Assembly (NCBI GenBank): GCA_043814095.1
Contig: JBDRKI010000123.1
Location: forward strand, 1 to 30,858
Direction: 5' to 3'
From: Armatimonadota bacterium
GTDB taxonomy: Bacteria > Vulcanimicrobiota > JACPDS01 > JBDRKI01
DNA length: 30,858 bases
Positions 71 through 23,622 of this stretch are shown in pieces. The first letter of the stretch is position 1; each line of letters begins with the position of its first letter. The position numbers and the translations under genes are program-made. The notes under the pieces are model-generated. The model did no database searches, had not been told where the DNA came from, and saw only the letters and a list, made by a program, of their open reading frames with translations.

Positions 71-1600
71 TTATGTTCTCCCGGGGATTTTTTCGAGATT
101 ATTTATATTCTGTTTTTTTATCTCTTCCAACTGACTGGTTATATCCGCAGGTTTCTTTTTTCTCATGGCGTCGGGAATCGCATGCCATATTTTTATTGCA
201 AGGAAAAAACCTATCAGCGTAAACGGCAGCAGGAACCAGGGCCAGTAATTCCAGTTCATTGTTGTAAGCTTGCCCAGCGCTATAGACTGGAATCCCGTGC
301 CGAGGTATACAAACCCGTCAATTACGCCTACCGCGGTGGCTGCGCCCTTCCTTCCTCCGAAATCCATTGTTGCCGTTCCTGAAAGAAGCCCGTGCACGCC
401 TATTACGCAGAGGGATATAAATACCATTAGGCCGCCGAGTATGTACTGGTTTTTATAAAGCGCGAAAGCCATATACAGTACCGCGGCAAACATTGAAAAA
501 TACATAAACGCGGCAGAGGGACCTCTGCGCGAATGGAATAGTTTATCAGACACTATTCCCGCTATAAATCCTCCCGATATGCCGGCAAGGCATAAGAGCA
601 TTCCCCAGTGGTCTTTAAACCATAATGCGGCCGTTCCAATCACGGCTTTGTTTTCTGCGGCAAATATGAAATACCAGTGCATAATACCGTTTCTGATAAC
701 ACCGGAGCAGAATTCTATGGCGCATATTGTTAAAATTATGGGATTTGTTAAAATCTTTTTAAAAATCTGCAAGGTGGAGAATTTCTGATCCATCTCGCCC
801 GAAGAGGCGTCGAGAGTGTCAAAATCTTTTAATCCGGCTTCGGACGGAGTATCTTTAATGAGCAGGAGGTTTATGATTATAAAGGCTGCGAGCAGTAATG
901 CCGGTATGTAAAATACATACCAGATCTGGTTTACGGGCCCCGCAGCCGCTCCGGTTAAGCCGCGCAGGAAGTTCTGTATAGGATCAAGATATGTGCCCGG
1001 TTTAAGGTTAACGCTTACCGCTTTTACGATCGCTCCGCCCCAGTCAAAGGCAAAATATATGCCGAGGGATATCAGAGTGCCGAATATACCGCTGAATATC
1101 CCTCTTTCGCGAACGTGGAACCACGGCGCGTTAACTTTTACGATTGATACCGCCCCGTAGCTCTGGAAATACATATTTACGCCGTATAATATGCAGAAAA
1201 GTTGTGTTAAATTAAGGCGCAGTCCCGAGTAAAGTATCTTATATATAACAAATCCCATCGCAATATTCGCAACAGTTGCCCCTGTCATGCCTATTATCAT
1301 TCCTTTTTTTCCGCCTATCCTGTCAACAAGCGGCCCGTTAATTAAAAATGAAAATCCGTATACAAGCGCGCCTACTCCGAAAATTAAGCCGAAATCTTCT
1401 TTTGTCATTAAATTGCCCAGGGCTGTCTTTGATACGGTGAGGTTATAGCGCGCCATATAAAGGAAGGCGTAGGAAAGCCCCAAGGGAAACCAGTTTAAAA
1501 ATCGCCTCCATATAAACTTTTTATCGTGCCCTGCGGGGTTATTTTTAAAGTAAATAAGAATAGCGATAGAAAGCAGGATTAGCATAATAATGTTGTCCAT
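71..1600 (-). CDS. MFS transporter, organophosphate:Pi antiporter (GlpT/UhpC-like) family
   Basis: About 12-13 hydrophobic segments. Motifs YAFLYMARYN, GPLVDRIGGK, WFHVRERG, GIVSDKLFHSRR and ATAVGVIDGFVYLG are typical of this family. Confidence 0.85.
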   Translation of the reverse strand: MDNIIMLILLSIAILIYFKNNPAGHDKKFIWRRFLNWFPLGLSYAFLYMARYNLTVSKTALGNLMTKEDFGLIFGVGALVYGFSFLINGPLVDRIGGKKGMIIGMTGATVANIAMGFVIYKILYSGLRLNLTQLFCILYGVNMYFQSYGAVSIVKVNAPWFHVRERGIFSGIFGTLISLGIYFAFDWGGAIVKAVSVNLKPGTYLDPIQNFLRGLTGAAAGPVNQIWYVFYIPALLLAAFIIINLLLIKDTPSEAGLKDFDTLDASSGEMDQKFSTLQIFKKILTNPIILTICAIEFCSGVIRNGIMHWYFIFAAENKAVIGTAALWFKDHWGMLLCLAGISGGFIAGIVSDKLFHSRRGPSAAFMYFSMFAAVLYMAFALYKNQYILGGLMVFISLCVIGVHGLLSGTATMDFGGRKGAATAVGVIDGFVYLGTGFQSIALGKLTTMNWNYWPWFLLPFTLIGFFLAIKIWHAIPDAMRKKKPADITSQLEEIKKQNINNLEKIPGRT

Positions 1601-9749: not shown

Positions 9750-10568
9750 TTATTTTTTCATTCTCTGTCTTAACCTAGCGGTCTGGCTGAATTCTGATTT
9801 TGCCGAAGCTTCTTCAAAATTTTGACCTGTATATTTTACGAAAACATCATCCATGCTCGCGTTAAATCCGGCTGATTTTTTCAGCTTGTCCGGAGTATCC
9901 ATTATCATTATTTTGCCCAGATTAATAATTGCTATCCTGTCGCAGTATTCTTCCGCCTCATTCATGTAATGTGTGTTTATGAAAATTGTGATTTTATGTT
10001 CTTTATGAAGGTGGAGTATTTTTTCCCAGACTTTTTTTCTTGCCAGAGGGTCAAGTCCGATAGTAGGTTCATCTAAAAATAATATTTTAGGGTAATTTAT
10101 TAAACTTTCAGCCATCTCCAGCCTGCGCATCATGCCGCCGGAATAAAATTTTACAAGATCATTTGCCCTGTCGGAGAGTTCCATAAGCTCCAGTGCCGAA
10201 TCTATTCTTATCTTTCTTTCCGAACGGGGCACGCCGTATAATTTAGCGTAAAAAAGAAGGTTCTCGTAAGCGGTCAGGTCTCTCTGTATGGATACTTCCT
10301 GGGGCACATATCCTATTATATTCCTTATTTTGTTGTCATCCCTTGATATCTTTAATCCGTTTATGTAGGCCGTGCCCTTAGTAGGCCTTATTAAAGTTGT
10401 GAGTATTTTCATGAGGGTGGTCTTCCCGGCCCCGTTAGGGCCGAGGAGTCCGAAAATCTCGTTTTTTTCAACGGTAAAATTTACATTTTTTAATGCGGTA
10501 ATCCCGCCTTTATATGTTTTGCTTACATCTCTTATATCTATCATAATATAAAGTAGTTCTATGGACAT
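9750..10568 (-). CDS. ABC-2 exporter ATP-binding protein (DrrA-like)
   Basis: Walker A GPNGAGKT, signature YSGGM, Walker B ILFLDEPT, H-loop THYM. Confidence 0.95.
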   Translation of the reverse strand: MSIELLYIMIDIRDVSKTYKGGITALKNVNFTVEKNEIFGLLGPNGAGKTTLMKILTTLIRPTKGTAYINGLKISRDDNKIRNIIGYVPQEVSIQRDLTAYENLLFYAKLYGVPRSERKIRIDSALELMELSDRANDLVKFYSGGMMRRLEMAESLINYPKILFLDEPTIGLDPLARKKVWEKILHLHKEHKITIFINTHYMNEAEEYCDRIAIINLGKIMIMDTPDKLKKSAGFNASMDDVFVKYTGQNFEEASAKSEFSQTARLRQRMKK

Positions 10569-10590
10569 AATAAAACTCCTACATTATAAA

Positions 10591-10619
10591 TTGACAATAC
10601 GGAATTTTAATCGTATAAT
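10591..10619 (+). promoter_or_regulatory. Consensus sigma70 promoter, originally of the M-box leader and now reading into the IS
   Basis: TTGACA (10591-10596), 17-nt spacer, TATAAT (10614-10619). Expected start near 10625-10626, right at the riboswitch 5' end. Confidence 0.9.
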
Positions 10620-10624
10620 TTTGT

Positions 10625-10637
10625 AGAATCTCGTTAG
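10625..10637 (+). ncRNA. 5' fragment of the M-box (ykoK) riboswitch
   Basis: AATCTC (10627-10632) is complementary to GAGATT (12095-12100). CGTTAG is the first half of the M-box CGUUAGGUGAGGCU motif. Confidence 0.85.
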
Positions 10638-11952
10638 GAAGGTCGGCGGGAATCCTCGGTAATTTAATGCCGAGATGAAAGCCGACAGGAAATTTATGAA
10701 AGCAGGTAGAAACTTGATATATAAGACATAGCAAGGAACTGATATGACATTAAAAGGCCATAAATACCGTATATATCCAAATGCGGCTGCCATACGGATT
10801 TTGGAGCAACATTTTGGCAGTGTCCGCTATGTTTACAATTATTTTCTTGGCCTGCGGATTAAAGCATACAAAGAAGAAGGAAAAACTATAGATGGATTTT
10901 CCTGCAAACGCATGCTTGTCGAATTAAAAAAAGAAAAATCATGGTTAAAAGATATTAATTCTCAGAGTCTTCAGCAATTCGTGCTTGATCTTGAAAAAAG
11001 TTACAGAAGATTTTTTAAAGGACTTGGCGGTTATCCTGTTTTCAAGAAGAAGGCAAACAGACAGTCATTCGCCGTGCCGCAGAATTTTAAAACAATAGAC
11101 GGCAAGCTATATATTCCGAAGTTAAAAAACGGGATAAACATAAAACTGCACAGGGAGCTTGAAGGATGCGCAAAAACCGTAATTATTTCTAAGTCGCCAA
11201 CGGGTAAATATTACGCTTCTTTTTCATGTGAAGTAGAAATTGATAAACTGCCGAAAAACAACAAAGAAATAGGAGTTGACCTAGGATTGAATCACTTTGC
11301 GATACTGTCAAACGGCGAAAAGATAGAACACCCGAAAACATTAAGAAGATCGCAGAAGAAATTAAGCAGACTGCAGAGGAAATTATCAGGGAAACAGAAG
11401 GGTTCAAGCAATAGAAACAAGGCAAGATTAAAAGTAGCCGCACTGCATGAGAAGATAGGCAACCAACGCAAAGATTTTCTTCATAAATTATCTTTCAGAT
11501 TGATACGCGAAAACCAAGCAATCCATCTGGAAGAATTAATAGTGAAGAATATGGTCAAAAACCGTTGTTTATCAAAAGCCATAAGCGACAGCGGGTGGGG
11601 AGAATTTACCCGTCAGCTTGATTACAAGTCCGAATGGTATGGCAGGCAGTTCAATCAAATACCGAGATTTTATCCGTCAAGCAAGACATGTAATGTGTGC
11701 GGTTTTGTATTTAAAGAATTGCAGTTATCGCAGAGGTCGTGGAATTGTACTGACTGCGGATCAATCCACGACAGGGACATAAACGCGGCTAATGTAATAC
11801 TAAGTGTAGGGCAGGACATGCCCGAATTAACGCCTGTGGAGAGATTGGCCCCTACCTCATCGGTATTATCGATGAAACAAGTCAGCTCGGTGAAGCAGGA
11901 AGCTCTCGCATCTAATAAGATGCACGGGATTTTAATCCCGTGAGTATGTCAC
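10638..11952 (+). mobile_element. IS200/IS605-family non-autonomous element (IS1341-like, tnpB only)
   Basis: Left-end hairpins GTCGGC/GCCGAC and CTCGGT/GCCGAG (10642-10686). Right-end hairpin CACGGGATT/AATCCCGTG (11923-11942) followed by ATGTCAC. No TIR or TSD. Removing it restores the riboswitch; the boundary is ambiguous by one G. Confidence 0.9.
10744..11943 (+). CDS. tnpB: RNA-guided endonuclease TnpB
   Basis: N-terminal KYRIYP...FGSVRYVYN, RuvC-I GVDLG, RuvC-II LEEL, zinc finger CNVC/CTDC, RuvC-III DRDINAA. Confidence 0.96.
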   Translation: MTLKGHKYRIYPNAAAIRILEQHFGSVRYVYNYFLGLRIKAYKEEGKTIDGFSCKRMLVELKKEKSWLKDINSQSLQQFVLDLEKSYRRFFKGLGGYPVFKKKANRQSFAVPQNFKTIDGKLYIPKLKNGINIKLHRELEGCAKTVIISKSPTGKYYASFSCEVEIDKLPKNNKEIGVDLGLNHFAILSNGEKIEHPKTLRRSQKKLSRLQRKLSGKQKGSSNRNKARLKVAALHEKIGNQRKDFLHKLSFRLIRENQAIHLEELIVKNMVKNRCLSKAISDSGWGEFTRQLDYKSEWYGRQFNQIPRFYPSSKTCNVCGFVFKELQLSQRSWNCTDCGSIHDRDINAANVILSVGQDMPELTPVERLAPTSSVLSMKQVSSVKQEALASNKMHGILIP

Positions 11953-11970
11953 GTGAGGCTACTCTTAAAA
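11800..11970 (+). ncRNA. Predicted TnpB omegaRNA/reRNA (scaffold to 11952, guide from 11953); outer limits approximate
   Basis: Characterised TnpB reRNAs overlap the tnpB 3' end and right end. Hairpins at 11908-11923 and 11923-11942. GTGA (11890-11893) can pair with terminal TCAC. Confidence 0.7.
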
Positions 11971-12100
11971 ACACAGGCCATTGCCCGGAAATGTCGAGAG
12001 ACGCCAATGGGTAGAAAAGACCAGATCGAATTAAGGTTTGGTATAACATGGCTAGCTGAGAAGCTTACGTTTGAGAAAGCCAAAGCTCAACAAGGAGATT
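11953..12100 (+). ncRNA. M-box (ykoK) Mg2+ riboswitch aptamer, main 3' part
   Basis: GTGAGGCT...TGCCCGGAAATGTCGAGAGACGCCAATGGGT...ATCGAATTAAGG...GCCAAAGCTC matches the conserved M-box blocks in order, upstream of Mg-transport-type genes. Confidence 0.92.
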
Positions 12101-12132
12101 TTGGATAGTTTTGACTATACATAAATCTTATT

Positions 12133-12161
12133 GAGCTTCTTTGCGAGAGGAAGCTTTTTTT
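12133..12161 (+). terminator. M-box expression-platform terminator
   Basis: GAGCTTCTTT-GCGA-GAGGAAGCTT plus T run. TTGAGCTT (12131-12138) can instead pair with aptamer AAGCTCAA (12083-12090) as an antiterminator. Confidence 0.88.
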
Positions 12162-12181
12162 ATTAATATCGGGATTTGGTT

Positions 12182-13450
12182 ATGAATTTTTTAGCAAAAC
12201 TGTTTTACACACACAGAAGAATATTTAAAGCGATTAAACTCTTCCTGATTATATCGGGTCCGGGTATTATTGTTATGGTTGCGGATAATGACGCCGCCGG
12301 CATTACTACATACGCGGTTACCGGAGCTAAATACGGTTATAAGCTTATATGGTTTTTACTTGTTCTTATTCCCATAGCGTATTATATTCAGGAGATGACA
12401 ATGAGGCTTGGTGTTGTCACAAAGAGAGGGCACGCTGAGTCTATTTTTACGGGGTTCGGCCCCTTATGGGGATGGTTCTCCCTTGCCAATCTTGCTTTTG
12501 TAAACTGGTTAACCCTTATAACGGAATTTATCGGCATGGCCGCGGCTTTCAGCATATTCGGGGTGCCTCCTTACGCGACGGTTATAGGGGTATGCCTTCT
12601 TATGGGATTTATGGTTTTAAAAGGAAGATACTGGACATGGGAAAAGATAGCGCTTCTATTCTGTTTTTTAAACCTTATATATATACCTATTGCTTTTATG
12701 ATAAAACCTTCCGTTTCCCAGATTATGCAGGGTTTTGTCCCTAATTTCCCCGGCGGGATTACTCAACCTCTCTTATTCTTTCTTATGGCAAATATTGGCA
12801 CAACAATTACTCCCTGGATGCTTTATTTCCAGCAGTCCGCTGTTGTTGATAAAGGCATGAAGGAAAAAGATATCCCCTGGGGCAAGTTTGATACTCTGGT
12901 GGGCGCAGTGTTTACGGTATCCATCGCGGTATTTATTGTTATAGTTACAGGCACAATCTTAAAGGGAGTGGAGATAGAAAGCGCAGCGCAGGCCGCGAGA
13001 ATGCTTATGGAGCTTCACCCATACCTGGGCACATGCCTTGCCATAGGACTTTTTAACGCGGGACTTTTAGGCGCGATCTGCATAACCCTCGCGAGCTCAT
13101 GGGCGTTCGGGGAAGTCTTCGGCTGGGCGCATTCTTTAAACAATAAAATTAAAGAAGCTCCGTGGTTTTACGCAAATTACTTCATAACCCTTATAACGGC
13201 GGGGCTGGTAATCTTAATACCCAGAGCGCCGCTTATTACTATAGCTCTTTTTGTCCAGGTAGCCTCGGTTATTCTTCTTCCGGCATCATTAGTATTTTTA
13301 ATACTTCTCTTAAACGACGAAAAAACAATGGGCGAATTTAAGAACTCAAGATTCCAGAATTTTATAAGCTTGATTATTATTATAGGCATTATTATTATAT
13401 CGGCATTGTACGCGGTAAGCATAATACTGCCGGATATTTTTAAGGGGTGA
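12182..13450 (+). CDS. NRAMP-related divalent cation transporter, probable Mg2+ (NrmT/NRMT) type
   Basis: TM1 GPGIIVMVADNDAAG (not DPGN), TM6 GTTITPWMLYFQQS (not MPH), QEMTMRLG, MGEFKN; M-box upstream. Start is ATG 12182 or TTG 12176. Confidence 0.88.
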   Translation: MNFLAKLFYTHRRIFKAIKLFLIISGPGIIVMVADNDAAGITTYAVTGAKYGYKLIWFLLVLIPIAYYIQEMTMRLGVVTKRGHAESIFTGFGPLWGWFSLANLAFVNWLTLITEFIGMAAAFSIFGVPPYATVIGVCLLMGFMVLKGRYWTWEKIALLFCFLNLIYIPIAFMIKPSVSQIMQGFVPNFPGGITQPLLFFLMANIGTTITPWMLYFQQSAVVDKGMKEKDIPWGKFDTLVGAVFTVSIAVFIVIVTGTILKGVEIESAAQAARMLMELHPYLGTCLAIGLFNAGLLGAICITLASSWAFGEVFGWAHSLNNKIKEAPWFYANYFITLITAGLVILIPRAPLITIALFVQVASVILLPASLVFLILLLNDEKTMGEFKNSRFQNFISLIIIIGIIIISALYAVSIILPDIFKG

Positions 13451-13456
13451 TAAAAT

Positions 13457-13669
13457 ATGAGAAGAAAGATGCGCATATTTTTCAAGCGCAGGGTAAAAAG
13501 GTTTTTCGCTCATTTATTTGACTGGTTTATAGATATAAACAAGAAATATTCCAAACCCCAGATAGAGATGAGGTTCTCTGTAAAAGCTTCCTTATTTATA
13601 CTTGTATTTTATCTTGTGTTTATGATGTCTCTTTTAATTTATAAATTTGTAATAACTGTAAGGGGTTAA
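13457..13669 (+). CDS. Small basic protein with a single C-terminal TM helix
   Basis: 70 aa filling the gap between operon genes (6 and 4 nt gaps), GGGGTGA SD, hydrophobic segment LFILVFYLVFMMSLLIY. Confidence 0.7.
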   Translation: MRRKMRIFFKRRVKRFFAHLFDWFIDINKKYSKPQIEMRFSVKASLFILVFYLVFMMSLLIYKFVITVRG

Positions 13670-13673
13670 GCAT

Positions 13674-14954
13674 ATGAATATAAATGATTTAAGAAAGCAA
13701 GCTGAATCGGAAAAAGTTTATTATCTCAGCGAGATTATAAACAGGAAAGTTGTCCTGAATAATAAAAAAACAGGCAGGCTTCTCGATATTGTCATTATTG
13801 AAACGGGAAAAGTCCCGGAAGCCACATTTTTTCTCGTTGGGCGTCCCTTCGGGCAGGCTTCGTTAATGGTGCCGTGGGAGAAGGTTAAAGAGATAAGTAA
13901 TAAAGAGATTGTCATTGATATAGAATCCCAGGAAAAGTATGAAGGCGACCCCAAGGAGGAGCAGGTATTATTAAGGGACCATATTCTTGATAAAAAGGTT
14001 CTGGATTTTGAAGATAATGAAGTGGAAGTGGTATATGACATAAAGCTGGTTCTGCGCAATAACAAACTTTACGTGACCGACGTGGATTTCAGCAGGTACG
14101 GCTTATTAAGAAGGATAGGATTAAAAGGCGTAGCCAATTTTATTTATAATTTAGCCGAGAAAATAAAAGAAGAGACAATATCATGGACATATATCCAGCC
14201 CCTTCCCGAGCAGTTAAGCAGTTTCAAGGGTAATGTACGGTTAAAGGTATTAAAAGAAAAGCTTCCCGAGATACACCCCGTGGATTTAGCTGATATGCTT
14301 GAAGAGTTAGAGCCCGAACAGCGCTTAAGCATTTTTAACGAGCTGGAGAGCGAGCAGGCATCGGATACCTTAGAAGAGATCGAGCCCCGCGTCCAGCGCG
14401 ACCTTATAGCTTCAATTAAAAAAGAAAGAGCGGCCGAGCTTATTAATCTTATGACTCCCGCCCAGGCGGCTGACGTTCTGGTGGAACTTCCCGGGACAGA
14501 AGCCGATGAGATACTTGAGCTTATTGATAAAGAAAATGCAGATAAGATACAGCCCATTATGGATAAACATGACGAGAAAATTCTGAATTTTTCCACTCCT
14601 GATTTTATAAAATTCAATAAGTATGCCACGGTAAGACAGGTATTAGACCGCTTCCGCATGGCCGCGAAAGATAAAGACGTTATAATGTATATTTATGTAC
14701 TGGATGATGAAAATAAGCTGGTGGGCGTTGTTGATATAAGGGAGCTTCTGCAGGCGCGTTTAGAAGACCGTCTCGAGAATATAATGACAGAACATGTAAT
14801 AAGTTTAGAACCGGACAGCAAGCTTTCTGAAGCATCGCATATGTTTAACAGGTACAGTTTCCGCGCAATACCTATTGTAGATGAAGCTGATAAAATATTA
14901 GGTATTGTTATGTACCGCGATATTATGAATTTAAAACACAGGTTTTTGGAATAA
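13674..14954 (+). CDS. Soluble PRC-barrel-like + MgtE N-terminal + CBS-pair protein
   Basis: IHPVDLADMLEEL and AADVL (MgtE_N). YIYVLDDENKLVGVV and AIPIVDEADKILGIV (CBS). No transmembrane domain. Confidence 0.88.
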   Translation: MNINDLRKQAESEKVYYLSEIINRKVVLNNKKTGRLLDIVIIETGKVPEATFFLVGRPFGQASLMVPWEKVKEISNKEIVIDIESQEKYEGDPKEEQVLLRDHILDKKVLDFEDNEVEVVYDIKLVLRNNKLYVTDVDFSRYGLLRRIGLKGVANFIYNLAEKIKEETISWTYIQPLPEQLSSFKGNVRLKVLKEKLPEIHPVDLADMLEELEPEQRLSIFNELESEQASDTLEEIEPRVQRDLIASIKKERAAELINLMTPAQAADVLVELPGTEADEILELIDKENADKIQPIMDKHDEKILNFSTPDFIKFNKYATVRQVLDRFRMAAKDKDVIMYIYVLDDENKLVGVVDIRELLQARLEDRLENIMTEHVISLEPDSKLSEASHMFNRYSFRAIPIVDEADKILGIVMYRDIMNLKHRFLE

Positions 14955-18111: not shown

Positions 18112-18645
18112 TTAACTTTTACTTATTTCCCATCTGCCGTCTGTAGAATTATAGTAAGTTTTCTCAAGATAGGAATTTATCTCGCGGCATGTAATTATTT
18201 TTTCACGGTCTTTGCCGAAAAGATTATTAAATAAATACGGATGGCTATCGGGATGTTTTTCAAATTTCTTATACCATTTAAGATATTCTGTTTTAAACTT
18301 GGAGAATGTTTCTATTTCTTTATTTTTAATAATATGGTATCCTTTTTTAACTTTAGCGGTATTCACAGGGTTTTTTCCGTTAAATAGCCTGGTTAAAGTT
18401 TTCAATCCTTCTTCTTCAGAAGCTATATTCATGATAATTTCAGCATTTATAAGTTTTTTATGAGCGGCTTCCGCTTTGGCTGCCAGCTTTTTAATATTTG
18501 CCGGGAAGAAATCAGATTCTCTTATCTTTCCGGTAATATATTTGACCGGATTGGCTTTTAATTGCCGCGGATAGCGCCGCATGGTATGAAAACAATCCAA
18601 TCCATTCAGTTCATTTTTAGCTGTAACCATTTTTGATATATTCAT
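18112..18645 (-). CDS. Hypothetical basic protein, last gene of array B
   Basis: 177 aa, GAGGTG SD overlapping the upstream stop; no recognised motif. Confidence 0.7.
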   Translation of the reverse strand: MNISKMVTAKNELNGLDCFHTMRRYPRQLKANPVKYITGKIRESDFFPANIKKLAAKAEAAHKKLINAEIIMNIASEEEGLKTLTRLFNGKNPVNTAKVKKGYHIIKNKEIETFSKFKTEYLKWYKKFEKHPDSHPYLFNNLFGKDREKIITCREINSYLEKTYYNSTDGRWEISKS

Positions 18646-18648
18646 ATT

Positions 18649-19116
18649 TCACCTCTTATACATATGATATTTGACTGTTAATAGATCCCATGCATCGCTT
18701 AAGGTTGCTTTAATATAAGCTTTATCAGCTGTAGATTTTTTGGTTTTATCAACTGCATCATGCTCGGCTTTATAAATGTAATTCTGGCACCTTGCTCTTT
18801 CAAGACCTGTTGCTTTATGAGTAAAATAGTTACCCGAGGTATCTTTTTTTTCTACTTCTATCCGGTTTTCTCTGTAGAAAAACCTATATTTTAATTTTTC
18901 CAAAGGATCAGCTACTGTAATTTTAAGGGGCACACCATCTTTGTAAAATATTTTAACAGTAATAGGTTTATCATCATTTTTAAGTTTAATAGTGCAGGGA
19001 CCTTCCATTTTTTTATAATTAGAATTCTTCTGCTGGAGTAAATAAATTTCTCTGGTGGTGCCGGGTGTGATCTTTGGTTCTGTTTTTCGTGTGCTTGAAT
19101 AATTTGGTGTAGACAT
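18649..19116 (-). CDS. Hypothetical protein, paralog family B (divergent)
   Basis: AAGGAG SD; IFYKDGVPLKI resembles IFYNKGAVYKI of the 144-aa gene. Confidence 0.72.
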   Translation of the reverse strand: MSTPNYSSTRKTEPKITPGTTREIYLLQQKNSNYKKMEGPCTIKLKNDDKPITVKIFYKDGVPLKITVADPLEKLKYRFFYRENRIEVEKKDTSGNYFTHKATGLERARCQNYIYKAEHDAVDKTKKSTADKAYIKATLSDAWDLLTVKYHMYKR

Positions 19117-19132
19117 AATATAAACTCCTTAA

Positions 19133-19555
19133 TTATTCTTTAGTTTTTATTTTTTCTATATCTCTTATGGCTTTATTTAATTGTGATGCAAGATTTTCCG
19201 GATATTTTTTAGGATGATCATTTATTTCTTTAGCGGTTTCTTTAAGCTGATATAAGAAGACCAGTTTGCTGTCATTATTCATCGGTTTGCGGTTTACGGG
19301 ATTGTCCTGCCATCCGCCTGTTTCTGTTTCCAGCTCTTTGCCTTTGGGGAAATTGGGGTAATATTTGTATTTAAAGATTTCATAATTTGCTATCCCGTTA
19401 AAAAGGATAATTTTGAAAACCTTATTGTTTCTTAAGTAAATTGTAGTCTCGTCTAGGGTCATGGGGGTTTTCTTCAGCATGATGGTTATTTTTTTGAATT
19501 CATTTTGCCTTTTGGCTGTAACCGGATTAACGCCTGTAATTATGTTTGTATTCAT
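19133..19555 (-). CDS. Hypothetical protein, paralog family B
   Basis: AAGGAG SD; IYLRNNKVFKII, YKY, KPM, KYPENLASQL. Confidence 0.78.
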   Translation of the reverse strand: MNTNIITGVNPVTAKRQNEFKKITIMLKKTPMTLDETTIYLRNNKVFKIILFNGIANYEIFKYKYYPNFPKGKELETETGGWQDNPVNRKPMNNDSKLVFLYQLKETAKEINDHPKKYPENLASQLNKAIRDIEKIKTKE

Positions 19556-19986
19556 AATATCTCCTTTTCTCCCGTTTCTATTTTAGATAATATTTTTTCC
19601 AGGTGCTGTGCGAGATTTTTCGGATATTTTCTCCAGTCGCCTTTAACAAGTTTTATAGTGTCCTGGAGATTTTCTGTAAAAGTTACTACCTCATGTCTCT
19701 CCATGGGTCTGTATTCCGAAGTAAGTGCACCTTCCGTGCTCTTTGTTCCGTATTCTAAAGAATCATTTTTAATATTGTATCTGTATAAGTTATAACCGAA
19801 TCCAGCTAAGCTGCCTGTTTTTTCCATTTCAAACTCAGTCATAATAATTTTATAAACCGCGCCTTTATTATAAAAAATCAAGGCATTGAAAACTCCTCCC
19901 AGGTCAATAGTTAATTTTCCTGAAAAAGACTGCACCTTGGTACTGGCACTTGCCAGCATTTTCGGGTTAATAAGATTGGCTTTCAT
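19552..19986 (-). CDS. Hypothetical protein, paralog family B
   Basis: GGAGG SD; IFYNKGAVYKII, YRY, RPM, KYPKNLAQHL. Confidence 0.78.
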   Translation of the reverse strand: MKANLINPKMLASASTKVQSFSGKLTIDLGGVFNALIFYNKGAVYKIIMTEFEMEKTGSLAGFGYNLYRYNIKNDSLEYGTKSTEGALTSEYRPMERHEVVTFTENLQDTIKLVKGDWRKYPKNLAQHLEKILSKIETGEKEIL

Positions 19987-19995
19987 TCTTCCTCC

Positions 19996-20403
19996 TTATT
20001 TATCTATTTTTTCCATTGTTTCTTTTAAAGTATCCATAATTAATTCATTTTTCTTGTCTGCCAGGTAGTGTTTTTCAATGGCTATTATTGTTTTTCCAAG
20101 CTGGTTTATAAAATATTCTTTATCCTTTGGTTTTATGTATCTTGCTTTTGTCCGTGTTTTACCCCCATCAAGCTTGTATTCTATCCATTCAATTTCAATC
20201 TTATTATTCTGCGGGGAGTATCTGTATATCATTATGCCTGCGGTTACCTTATTTATATACGCTATTTTCTGCAGTTTATTAGCATTAAAACATACTTTAA
20301 CTTCTTCTTTTGAGAATTCTGTTGTTTCCAGCACAAACCGTCTTATCCATTCGCTTTTTTGCGGTTGTGTTTGTGCTATAAACTTTGTTTCTGTAATATT
20401 CAT
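19996..20403 (-). CDS. Hypothetical protein, paralog family B, first gene of array
   Basis: AAGGA SD; VCFNANKLQKI, IYRY, FINQLGKT. Confidence 0.75.
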   Translation of the reverse strand: MNITETKFIAQTQPQKSEWIRRFVLETTEFSKEEVKVCFNANKLQKIAYINKVTAGIMIYRYSPQNNKIEIEWIEYKLDGGKTRTKARYIKPKDKEYFINQLGKTIIAIEKHYLADKKNELIMDTLKETMEKIDK

Positions 20404-21645: not shown

Positions 21646-23622
21646 ATGAATATTTTTAAGATTAAAAGTATTTTTGTTACGGTTTCTCTTTTTTTGTTCT
21701 GCGTATATATGCTTGCAGGATTATCTTTCCCGGAGAAGCTTAACATTCCAGAAAGTATTGAAATCGCAACGAATAAGAACCTTAACTTCAAATACAGTGA
21801 AGTGAATTATGAGATAAGCAAGTTATATGTTGACCAGGCAAAGCTGGATTTTCATCCCAAATTGGATCTTACGACATACCATAAACAGGATGCTTACCCG
21901 GCTCCCAATAAATCAACTTACCTTTTTCATGTTGTACAGCCTTTTTATTATTCCGGCGCGCTTACCAACCGGCTTAATTCCAAGAAATTCGCGAGCCAGT
22001 CCAGTCTTCTGGGGTTGATACAGGACAGCATAAATCTTGAAAGCGCTGTTTTTGACGCCTATATGAATGTTTTAAGACAGGAAATGCTGGTTGTTGTCGG
22101 TGAGTTTTCGATAAACGGCATTCAGGATGAGATTGATAATATACAAAGTTCTGTTGAAGAAGGCAAAAGAGGCAATGAGGCGGTCTTAAGGCTTAATGTT
22201 CTTTTAAATGATTTTCGGGAAGATCTTGTCGCCGCAAGACAGAGTCTCGTTGATGCCAAAGCCAACTTTAATACAATTTTAAATCTGGATCTTTCTAAAA
22301 ATGTTGACCTTGTTATGTTCGGGGCTGAGTTATTCGAGCTTGATTATATAAGGTACAAACAGCAGAGGAAGAAATATGATACCCAGCAGATACTTGATAT
22401 TTATTATGAATACGCGTTAAAAATGAGCCCGCTTGCCAACCAGAAAGATATAAATATTGCCGCCGCGGAATATGAATTAAGGGCAGAAAGAGGGGACAAG
22501 CAGCCGAAGATAAATTTTTCTCCACAATACGGCACGGATGATACAGGACAGGAAGGCGCCTGGAATGTAGGTTTTAGTTTTACCTATATCTTTCTTGATG
22601 AGAGCGACTGGAAAGACTACCAGATAAAAGAGGAGCAGGTAAAACAGGTAAAGCTTGATAGGGATATTTATCACAGGGATTTAAAATCCGCTATAAGAAC
22701 AAATTATTCTAAAGTGATAGCCCTGGCCGAAAAGGCTTTTATAAACAGGAAACAGGCGTATGATTCGTTTAAATACCTCCAGAAGATAAAAGAAAAATAC
22801 GCCAAAGAACAGGTTACCGATCTGACTATGGTTGACGCATACAGAAGCTTTTATGAAAACCAGATTGCCGATATAAACACCCTTTATGATTATTATATAC
22901 AGCGTGAAAATCTTGAAGCGGTTATAGGGTACTCGGATTTCCGCCAGACCCCGACTTTTGACGAGTTTTTAGAATCTGAAGATAAAAATAAGTTTAAAAT
23001 AAGGGAAGACCTGGGAGCAGGCACGCATATAGACAAAGCGGCTGATGAAAATGATATTGATGAGGTAAGACGCATTCTTGCGGGTGATCCGGAGCTTGTA
23101 AATTCGGTTAATGATGTTGGATGGGCGCCTCTTCACTGGGCAGCGTACAGGGGCTATAATGATATGGTGAAGTTCCTTATAGAAAAAGGGGCGGATGTAA
23201 ACGCACAGACAACCATAGGGCTTACGCCTCTTTACCTGGCTGTTTCGGAGAATCATGAAGAAACCGTAAAGATGCTTATAGGCGCGGGCGCCGATGTTAA
23301 TCTTGCGGTGAGAACAACCGGGTGGACGCCTCTTATGAAAGCCGTTATGGAATCATATACGGATATTGTAAAATTTCTGCTTGCAAGCGGCGCGGAGATA
23401 AACGCTAAATCAATAGCGGGCTGGACGGCTCTTCATGATGCCATAGAAGCAGGTAATTTGCCTCTAGCGAAGATACTCATAGCTCACGGTGCGGATATTG
23501 ATATTGATAATTATGAAGGCAGTTCCGCTTTAGATCTTGCGATAATGGCAGGGAATGAGAAAGCCGTGGAATATCTTGAAAAATATCTTGAAAACAGAAG
23601 CGGAGGCGGAATTGATCAATAA
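21646..23622 (+). CDS. TolC-family outer-membrane efflux protein fused to C-terminal ankyrin repeats
   Basis: Signal peptide and two OEP-like repeats (LNIPESIEIA, PKLDL, QPFYYSG, PKINFS, WNVGFSFTYIF). Then ankyrin repeats GWAPLHWAA, GLTPLYLAV, GWTPLMKAV, GWTALHDAI plus caps. Confidence 0.85.
   Translation: MNIFKIKSIFVTVSLFLFCVYMLAGLSFPEKLNIPESIEIATNKNLNFKYSEVNYEISKLYVDQAKLDFHPKLDLTTYHKQDAYPAPNKSTYLFHVVQPFYYSGALTNRLNSKKFASQSSLLGLIQDSINLESAVFDAYMNVLRQEMLVVVGEFSINGIQDEIDNIQSSVEEGKRGNEAVLRLNVLLNDFREDLVAARQSLVDAKANFNTILNLDLSKNVDLVMFGAELFELDYIRYKQQRKKYDTQQILDIYYEYALKMSPLANQKDINIAAAEYELRAERGDKQPKINFSPQYGTDDTGQEGAWNVGFSFTYIFLDESDWKDYQIKEEQVKQVKLDRDIYHRDLKSAIRTNYSKVIALAEKAFINRKQAYDSFKYLQKIKEKYAKEQVTDLTMVDAYRSFYENQIADINTLYDYYIQRENLEAVIGYSDFRQTPTFDEFLESEDKNKFKIREDLGAGTHIDKAADENDIDEVRRILAGDPELVNSVNDVGWAPLHWAAYRGYNDMVKFLIEKGADVNAQTTIGLTPLYLAVSENHEETVKMLIGAGADVNLAVRTTGWTPLMKAVMESYTDIVKFLLASGAEINAKSIAGWTALHDAIEAGNLPLAKILIAHGADIDIDNYEGSSALDLAIMAGNEKAVEYLEKYLENRSGGGIDQ

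Follow-up and report, generated by a model that had tools for sequence, protein, structure and literature searches.

The only M-box riboswitch in the genome of this bacterium is split by a transposable element. In the window, by which we mean the whole 30,858-nucleotide stretch analyzed here, 1,315 bp of inserted DNA (positions 10638 to 11952), a tnpB-only element of the IS200/IS605 family, separate position 15 of the Rfam M-box model from position 16. The reading we favor, at a probability of roughly 85%, is that an element of the IS1341 type inserted once, on the 3' side of a TTAG that happens to belong to P1 of the sole M-box, where it is the conserved UUAG of the 5' strand, and that it came there by chance and not by targeting. 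The insertion site alone would then set the TnpB guide, which would be whatever sequence flanks the right end on its 3' side. Were a TnpA acting in trans ever to excise the element and restore the riboswitch (TTAG followed by GTGAGGCT...), the TnpB-omegaRNA complex would be expected to cut the restored riboswitch, so that the element could be copied back from a copy still holding it. After insertion, tnpB and the omegaRNA would be transcribed from the consensus promoter of the riboswitch itself, and the aptamer, with its outer P1 strand no longer contiguous, would regulate the Nramp and MgtE_N-CBS genes more weakly or with a shift toward read-through. The preliminary description had given a single chance insertion at a 4-nt target as its null hypothesis, and it is this hypothesis that fits best. 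The features of the element and of the aptamer are as follows.

10627..10637, plus strand: displaced 5' piece of the M-box, AATCTC (10627-10632) followed by GTTAG, in which TTAG is the left cleavage site and the presumed TAM
10638..10743, plus strand: left end of the element, with a 13-nt spacer, AATC (10651-10654), a hairpin (10655-10674), and an outer stem
10744..11943, plus strand: tnpB, 399 amino acids, with RuvC residues D179/E263/D345 and zinc finger C316/C319/C335/C338 intact
11806..11952, plus strand: predicted omegaRNA scaffold and right end, sharing sequence with the 3' end of tnpB; recognized by consensus pairs and a conserved terminus
11953..11972, plus strand: predicted guide segment, the first 16 to 20 nt of the right flank, placed by the rule of Karvelis 2021 and the fixed boundary
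11953..12105, plus strand: remaining M-box aptamer, Rfam model positions 16-169

The M-box at this locus is a split riboswitch. RF00380 was matched at 11938-12105 with 115.6 bits against a gathering threshold of 44, the sole gathering-level Rfam RNA match across the whole window. When scored from 11953 alone, the aptamer gave 110.5 bits in a match that is truncated on its 5' side and covers model positions 16-169, and with an nhmmer profile made from the M-boxes of relatives, the match in the window began at profile position 15, at 11952. The locus has no contiguous aptamer with a closing P1, since model positions 1-15 are separated from the rest by the length of the element. The outer P1 strand AATCTC, an exact complement of GAGATT at 12095-12100, is stranded with the GTTAG that follows it just 5' of the inserted DNA. 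The left flank ends in ...AATCTCGTTAG, its TTAG occupying 10634-10637; the element begins with GAAGGTCGGC at 10638 and ends with ...GTGAGTATGTCAC at 11952; and the right flank, from 11953, reads GTGAGGCTACTCTTAA, its opening bases being GTGAGGCT. In the GUUAG-GUGAGGCU motif, the break comes immediately behind the conserved UAG, and rejoining the left and right flanks makes that motif continuous, with no base gained or lost and no target duplication. Both the boundary reading and the split in the M-box model bear out what the preliminary description had said of the flanks, that the left one ends in TTAG and where the right one starts. A boundary moved by one G is formally possible, but the remaining right-end copies rule it out. 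Misassembly as the cause of the split was also rejected, because joining the two flanks gives back a flawless M-box motif and a flawless P1 helix.

The ends of the element are of a recognizable kind. The left hairpin (CTCGG...CCGAG) is accompanied by an outer stem, GGTCGGC/GCCGAC (10641/10681). The same layout of TTAG, 13 nt, AATC, and a hairpin was found in all four elements with this left end, those in the window and at L078, L080, and L198, and the sequence 5' of TTAG in the latter three is unrelated. Because the layout holds in four of four related elements, TTAG is well supported as the transposase target and, via the published equivalence, as the TAM. At L093 and L094 the pair is altered to TTAT with AACA, and the spacing is unchanged. 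On the right side, a hairpin (CACGGG...CCCGTG, 11923-11942) is followed by 10 nt ending in TCAC, the right cleavage site. In the guide/cleavage-site pairing scheme of IS200/IS605 ends, the internal guides are AATC before the left hairpin, set against TTAG, and GATG before the right hairpin, set against TCAC. A GTCAC terminus with immediate divergence after it was seen in five other copies of the right end: two metagenome elements with a TnpB identity of about 52% (L078 and L083), one on a viral contig at 47.6% (L198), and two orphan right-end remnants in the organism's own genome (C23 and C75). A sixth copy, the short remnant C29 with a 21-nt match, has GTCA and then T. The terminal 30 nt are nearly invariant across six copies, with a terminus of the GTGAGKATGTCAC type. 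These comparisons of the ends draw on only four to seven related copies whose ends could be read. Upstream of the right end, 147 nt share a common fold among the four tnpB-bearing copies, with 35 consensus pairs, of which 10 show compensatory changes across these four sequences only; small as the sample is, the fold has the form expected of an omegaRNA scaffold. The Rfam family RAGATH-18 was matched weakly at 11833-11901, at 26.2 bits, under its gathering score of 44.9.

Further members of the family were sought with the pattern CCGTGAGKATGTCAC. Among 401 genomes of the phylum, it was found in the organism's own genome and gave two other matches (G034 and G057), which were treated as chance since no TnpB homolog lies upstream of either (tblastn E <= 1e-3). 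At least 111 stretches of viral contigs matched the pattern; out of 80 such loci examined, one (L198) is a true family member and the remaining 79 are apparent chance matches. A protein match at L134, with 83% identity over residues 139-247 only, was accompanied by no match to the right end or the left end.

The element carries one gene, whose product belongs to the TnpB family by its Pfam domains: OrfB_IS605 (PF01385, 108.5 bits), the Cas12f1-like TNB domain (PF07282, 79.3 bits), and HTH_OrfB (PF12323, 58.2 bits). Residues 6-350 align to ISDra2 TnpB (8bf8/8exa) with an E value of 4.8e-80. In that alignment, the segments GVDLG, HLEEL, and HDRDINAA, which hold D179, E263, and D345, stand opposite the RuvC motifs of ISDra2, and all four cysteines of the CxxC...CxxC zinc finger are there, so the intactness of the RuvC triad and zinc finger had been described correctly from the start. 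Two of the ISDra2 RuvC catalytic residues are presumably E278 and D361. The third, D191, was reported as essential in ISDra2 TnpB (PMC8612924). Between 10638 and 11952 there is no open reading frame besides tnpB, and the Y1 transposase TnpA is absent from the element. No cognate TnpA was seen in the assembly either (129 contigs, 98.97% complete). Just one Y1 transposase in the genome is full length (C96), and the ends of its element differ from those described here, as do the ends of the elements to which the other Y1 genes belong. The left end of TTAG, 13 nt, AATC, and hairpin occurs once in the assembly. Since no tnpA lies inside the element and the Y1 elements of the genome have other ends, the element is a nonautonomous IS200/IS605 member of the IS1341 type, with tnpB only, as judged from its gene content and ends.

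TnpB takes as its guide about 16 nt of the sequence that follows the right end on its 3' side, and its TAM is the TnpA target (Karvelis 2021, PMC8612924). By this published rule, the guide here should be riboswitch sequence: the 3' end of the omegaRNA is predicted to consist of about 16 to 20 nt of the right flank, from GTGAGGCT onward, and these bases are the 5' strands of P1 and P2 of the M-box aptamer. The only predicted target would be the restored riboswitch, that is, the excised donor joint. At the present locus, the guide-matching sequence is preceded by GTCAC and not TTAG, and the locus is therefore no target. Earlier statements that the guide and the TAM are riboswitch sequence and that a restored M-box would be cut would thus follow by the published rule. 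They follow trivially, however, from the landing place of the element and reflect no targeting specialization. Cutting of a restored donor joint would be the ordinary behavior of every IS605-family TnpB and no special property of this insertion. The interval 11800-11975 given in the preliminary description holds the right end and the guide only; the TTAG that it cited lies 1.3 kb upstream.

Targets beyond the donor joint had also been suggested, at other M-box loci in the genome and on incoming DNA. The 2.50-Mb genome has one full copy of the element, one M-box, and 10,950 TTAG sites. With a single M-box, there is no other genomic M-box to be bound or cut. Nowhere does TTAG precede even the initial 8 bases of the guide, and the closest near-match flanked by TTAG departs from the 16-nt guide at 4 of 16 positions. 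A search of 60 relatives yielded 21 M-boxes from 18 related genomes, and these agree with the 16-nt guide at only 8 to 10 bases, the first 7 or 8 (GTGAGGC) alone being conserved; the suggestion that the nuclease acts on incoming or other M-boxes is not supported, given such partial agreement. The same counts bear on the idea that TnpB and its omegaRNA have been exapted to bind M-box DNA and regulate magnesium homeostasis. The precedent for this is TldR, a group of nuclease-dead TnpB-like repressors that have lost the RuvC catalytic residues and the transposon ends. We consider exaptation exceedingly improbable. In its favor, the guide would match the leader of a magnesium transporter operon, and tnpB sits under the host promoter, but the RuvC D/E/D residues are intact, unlike those of the nuclease-dead repressors, and the ends are typical transposon ends, common to mobile copies elsewhere. 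Moreover, the protospacer at the present locus is preceded by GTCAC rather than TTAG, and the genome offers a single M-box and no site with both TAM and guide. The proposed RNA-guided control of a magnesium regulon is thus unsupported, given intact nuclease residues, a lone M-box, and, at the present locus, a TAM split from its protospacer.

The chance-insertion reading also has consequences for the host genes, because the element sits at the head of a riboswitch leader. The host features are these.

10591..10619, plus strand: host promoter of the riboswitch leader (TTGACA, 17 nt, TATAAT), with 12 of 12 consensus matches
12083..12163, plus strand: expression platform, with a terminator hairpin and T run and complementary octamers, their roles being presumptive
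12176..13450, plus strand: Nramp-family transporter gene (PF01566, 253.9 bits)
13674..14954, plus strand: gene for an MgtE_N plus CBS protein without a membrane domain

The promoter is the only full-consensus site within 10450-12300. Some 120 bp separate it from tnpB downstream, and on its other side a divergent ABC-transporter gene points the opposite way. The element is 12 nt downstream of the promoter, at 12 nt from the likely transcription start. No terminator was predicted on the plus strand from the promoter to 12133, and for this reason one transcript could carry tnpB, the omegaRNA, the remainder of the aptamer, and the transporter leader. A single transcript with all of these roles had been proposed before, and the terminator prediction is consistent with it. 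Downstream of the aptamer, the octamer AAGCTCAA (12083-12090) is complementary to TTGAGCTT (12131-12138), on the 5' side of a terminator hairpin at 12133-12156 that is followed by a T run. The pairing of AAGCTCAA with TTGAGCTT would form the antiterminator, and the 3' strand of P1 overlaps the first of these octamers. The gene at 12176-13450 probably encodes an Nramp-related magnesium transporter; an Nramp-type gene stands downstream of the M-box in 10 of the 21 loci from relatives. The gene at 13674-14954 is probably in the same magnesium operon.

The calculated energy of the P1 duplex is -14.9 kcal/mol with the original 5' strand and -7.3 kcal/mol with the right-end sequence that has replaced it. 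From these energies, P1 is probably weakened, and the regulation of the operon is probably weakened or shifted to read-through; a weaker P1 would favor the antiterminator, with more read-through and less magnesium control as the result. Minimum-free-energy folds point the same way, although they take no account of magnesium-dependent tertiary structure. A CorA gene elsewhere in the genome may make altered control of the Nramp/MgtE_N-CBS operon tolerable. A retained and possibly beneficial insertion is a related reading, in which the operon was deregulated or rewired to advantage, with constitutive read-through, or the right end partly replaces the lost P1 strand and keeps the switch functional. 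For partial replacement there is the full-length M-box score of 115.6 bits with the right end included versus 110.5 bits for the truncated match, but this gain of 5 bits is small, and the substitute duplex is half as stable as the original. For deregulation there are minimum-free-energy folds, in which the present transcript is without the terminator hairpin and the reconstructed leader retains it, and a CorA gene that may render the operon dispensable; such folds, however, leave out magnesium-dependent tertiary structure and cotranscriptional kinetics. No empty-site ortholog was found in a related genome, as the only genome of the same order (G001, 75% complete) had no M-box match. Taken with these points on both sides, an insertion kept for its benefit seems unlikely.

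The remaining question is whether M-boxes are favored as landing sites. In this alternative, the element family or the TnpA acting in trans would prefer M-box DNA beyond TTAG itself, for example because the structured single-stranded DNA of the aptamer presents TTAG well, and M-boxes would be recurrent landing sites. The target does lie within the conserved core of the M-box: TTAG precedes GTGAGGC in 13 of the 21 M-boxes of relatives, the remainder having CTAG, TTCG, GTAG, or CTTG. Recurrence, however, was not seen. One of the seven right-end copies with a readable flank adjoins an M-box, and that one is the window itself; the other six have flanks that differ from one another, with no M-box among them. 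No TnpB homolog was found within about 1.5 kb of any of the 21 M-box loci in relatives. Loci of TnpB homologs were also collected, 98 in all, 41 from genomes and 57 from metagenomes, with 30 to 52% identity over long matches. None of the 98 has an M-box at an nhmmer E value of <= 10 in up to 2.5 kb of flank, using a profile that does find the one in the window; this is weak evidence that says little about TTAG-specific elements, since the homologs are distant and may use other target sites. With one event only, site-preference statistics are impossible. Taken together, the other copies and close homologs lie at unrelated TTAG sites with no enrichment for M-boxes, and the homing into the M-box family that the preliminary description had raised is not supported: the association was absent from all 98 homolog loci, from all 6 other right-end copies, and from all 21 M-box loci of relatives.

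Groundwater metagenomes provided a further look at the family. Four runs from three studies (X1, X2, X5, and X6) contain many short contigs that are 80 to 99% like the element. None of these spans the whole stretch, and the unique flanks of the host, 10522-10595 and most of 12076-12500, are uncovered. Among the contigs listed, none bridges 11952/11953 or joins 10637 to 11953, and two joints resemble miniature derivatives made of a left end and a right end. The element family is thus present in groundwater communities, probably in multiple copies. Summed depth in X1 and X2 runs past 11952 to about 12075, and a preference for M-boxes could draw on this depth into 11953-12075. Against that, the sequence beyond a loose end in X1 at 12011 is M-box-like but different, which is what riboswitches of other organisms would give. 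The depth past 11952 suggests M-boxes of other organisms aligning via the conserved core and leaves room for further junctions between right ends and M-boxes. Because the contigs listed do not settle whether right ends and M-boxes are bridged, we keep a small share of the probability for site preference and regard homing as very unlikely. Also very unlikely, in our view, is a family bias for the structured M-box core or a coupled unit in which magnesium-dependent folding gates the guide RNA. If the coupled unit were real, the riboswitch promoter would drive tnpB and the omegaRNA, folding of the read-through transcript would set the yield of mature guide RNA because the guide is the 5' strand of P1/P2 in a magnesium-binding aptamer, and maintenance of the transposon would be tied to cellular magnesium.

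The chance insertion of an ordinary element therefore stands as the preferred reading, and it can be set beside known systems. ISDra2 TnpB from Deinococcus radiodurans (8bf8/8exa/8h1j) is the best natural structural relative of the TnpB in the window. The two share their domain set and, by prediction for the window element, a guide drawn from the sequence just past the right end and a TAM equal to the transposase target, as reported for ISDra2 (PMC8612924). ISDra2, however, carries tnpA and uses TTGAT, whereas the window element is without tnpA and presumably uses TTAG. The locus offers a guide and a TAM (TTAG) that are naturally matched, in a close relative of ISDra2. In IS608 from Helicobacter pylori (PMC3201880), 19 nt separate the left cleavage site from the left hairpin that follows it, a guide tetranucleotide stands at the foot of that hairpin, and 10 nt separate the right hairpin from the right cleavage site downstream. 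The window element resembles IS608, as described there, in inserting 3' of a tetranucleotide without duplication, in its subterminal hairpins, in a 4-nt guide at the hairpin foot that reads the external cleavage site, and in a right site 10 nt past the hairpin. It differs in having 17 nt rather than 19 nt from the cleavage site to the hairpin foot and in the pairs themselves, TTAG/AATC and TCAC/GATG versus TTAC/AAAG and TCAA. The IS1341-type tnpB-only elements (PMC4615843) likewise have tnpB alone between IS605-type ends with a structured 3' RNA, and, as far as that source describes them, nothing essential separates them from the window element, which is a new copy in an unusual place.

Three other comparisons concern that place. 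IStrons (bioRxiv 10.1101/2023.11.20.567912) likewise give one stretch of RNA two functions, that of a transposon guide RNA and that of another structured RNA. According to that report, however, the second RNA of an IStron is a group I intron of the element's own that removes the element from host RNA, whereas here it is a riboswitch of the host, split by the element, and no sign of splicing is seen. The M-box with an Nramp-related magnesium transporter that was described by Shin (2014, PMC4072509) has the same aptamer, terminator, and downstream Nramp-type gene, but in the window the 5' strand of the aptamer is interrupted by 1,315 bp. A TnpB element within a riboswitch is not described in the available text of the TnpB/riboswitch and IS605/riboswitch literature, including PMC9208149. 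Riboswitch-directed homing and RNA-guided control of magnesium genes are not supported. Unlike TldR, the TnpB in the window keeps its triad, and the element keeps typical left and right ends. On present evidence, the element is a new copy of a known kind in a notable but accidental place, and it reveals no new mechanism. Sitting directly under a strong host promoter, it is a useful illustration, and a clean natural example, of how the insertion site sets the TnpB guide, here giving a nuclease that would police against restoration of the riboswitch.

Orphan right-end remnants of the family to which the tnpB-only IS200/IS605 insertion belongs lie on three contigs of the Armatimonadota genome:

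C23:55311-55400, minus strand, orphan right-end remnant of the element's family
C75:57300-57390, minus strand, orphan right-end remnant of the same family
C29, about 880-963, plus strand, orphan right-end remnant of the same family

These remnants are 83 to 100% identical to the right end of the element over the last 21 to 36 nt, have no adjoining tnpB of the element's type, and are embedded in flanks that differ from one another. They point to earlier activity of the element family in this genome. Contig C23 also carries, at locus L002, an intergenic run of 12 G on the minus strand (near locus position 2831), beyond which a second IS605-type family has left a truncated tnpA-tnpB remnant. The left end of that remnant matches the left end of the full TnpA element on contig C96.

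In groundwater metagenome runs X5 and X2, contigs were found that fuse the left-end hairpin region (window 10686/10687) to the right end (11807/11899), skipping tnpB. The contigs look like miniature noncoding derivatives of the element, although with one contig each and one side of 30 nt these joints are weak evidence.

The M-box is followed by two genes with a predicted link to magnesium:

12176-13450, plus strand, Nramp-type gene, 5' of the MgtE_N-CBS gene
13674-14954, plus strand, 426-aa protein that combines MgtE_N with a pair of CBS domains and lacks the MgtE membrane domain, 3' of the Nramp-type gene

Among the 21 M-box loci of related genomes, an Nramp-type gene is present at 10 and a soluble MgtE_N-CBS gene at 8, and one locus (L071) has both. 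The genome itself lacks the MgtE membrane domain (PF01769) and has a single CorA. The Nramp-type and soluble MgtE_N-CBS genes may constitute a two-part Mg uptake and sensing unit. Between them lies a 70-aa open reading frame (ORF) with a hydrophobic C-terminal half (13457-13669, plus strand).

Elsewhere in the window, a 658-aa ORF (21646-23622, plus strand) joins outer-membrane efflux protein (OEP) repeats to an ankyrin-repeat block, which is an uncommon fusion. Five small ORFs of 135 to 177 aa follow one another at 18112-20403 on the minus strand, none with a Pfam match at an E value of ≤1e-5.

Within the predicted omegaRNA scaffold of the element, positions 11833-11901 (plus strand) match the Rfam family RAGATH-18 below threshold, at 26.2 bits against a gathering score of 44.9.
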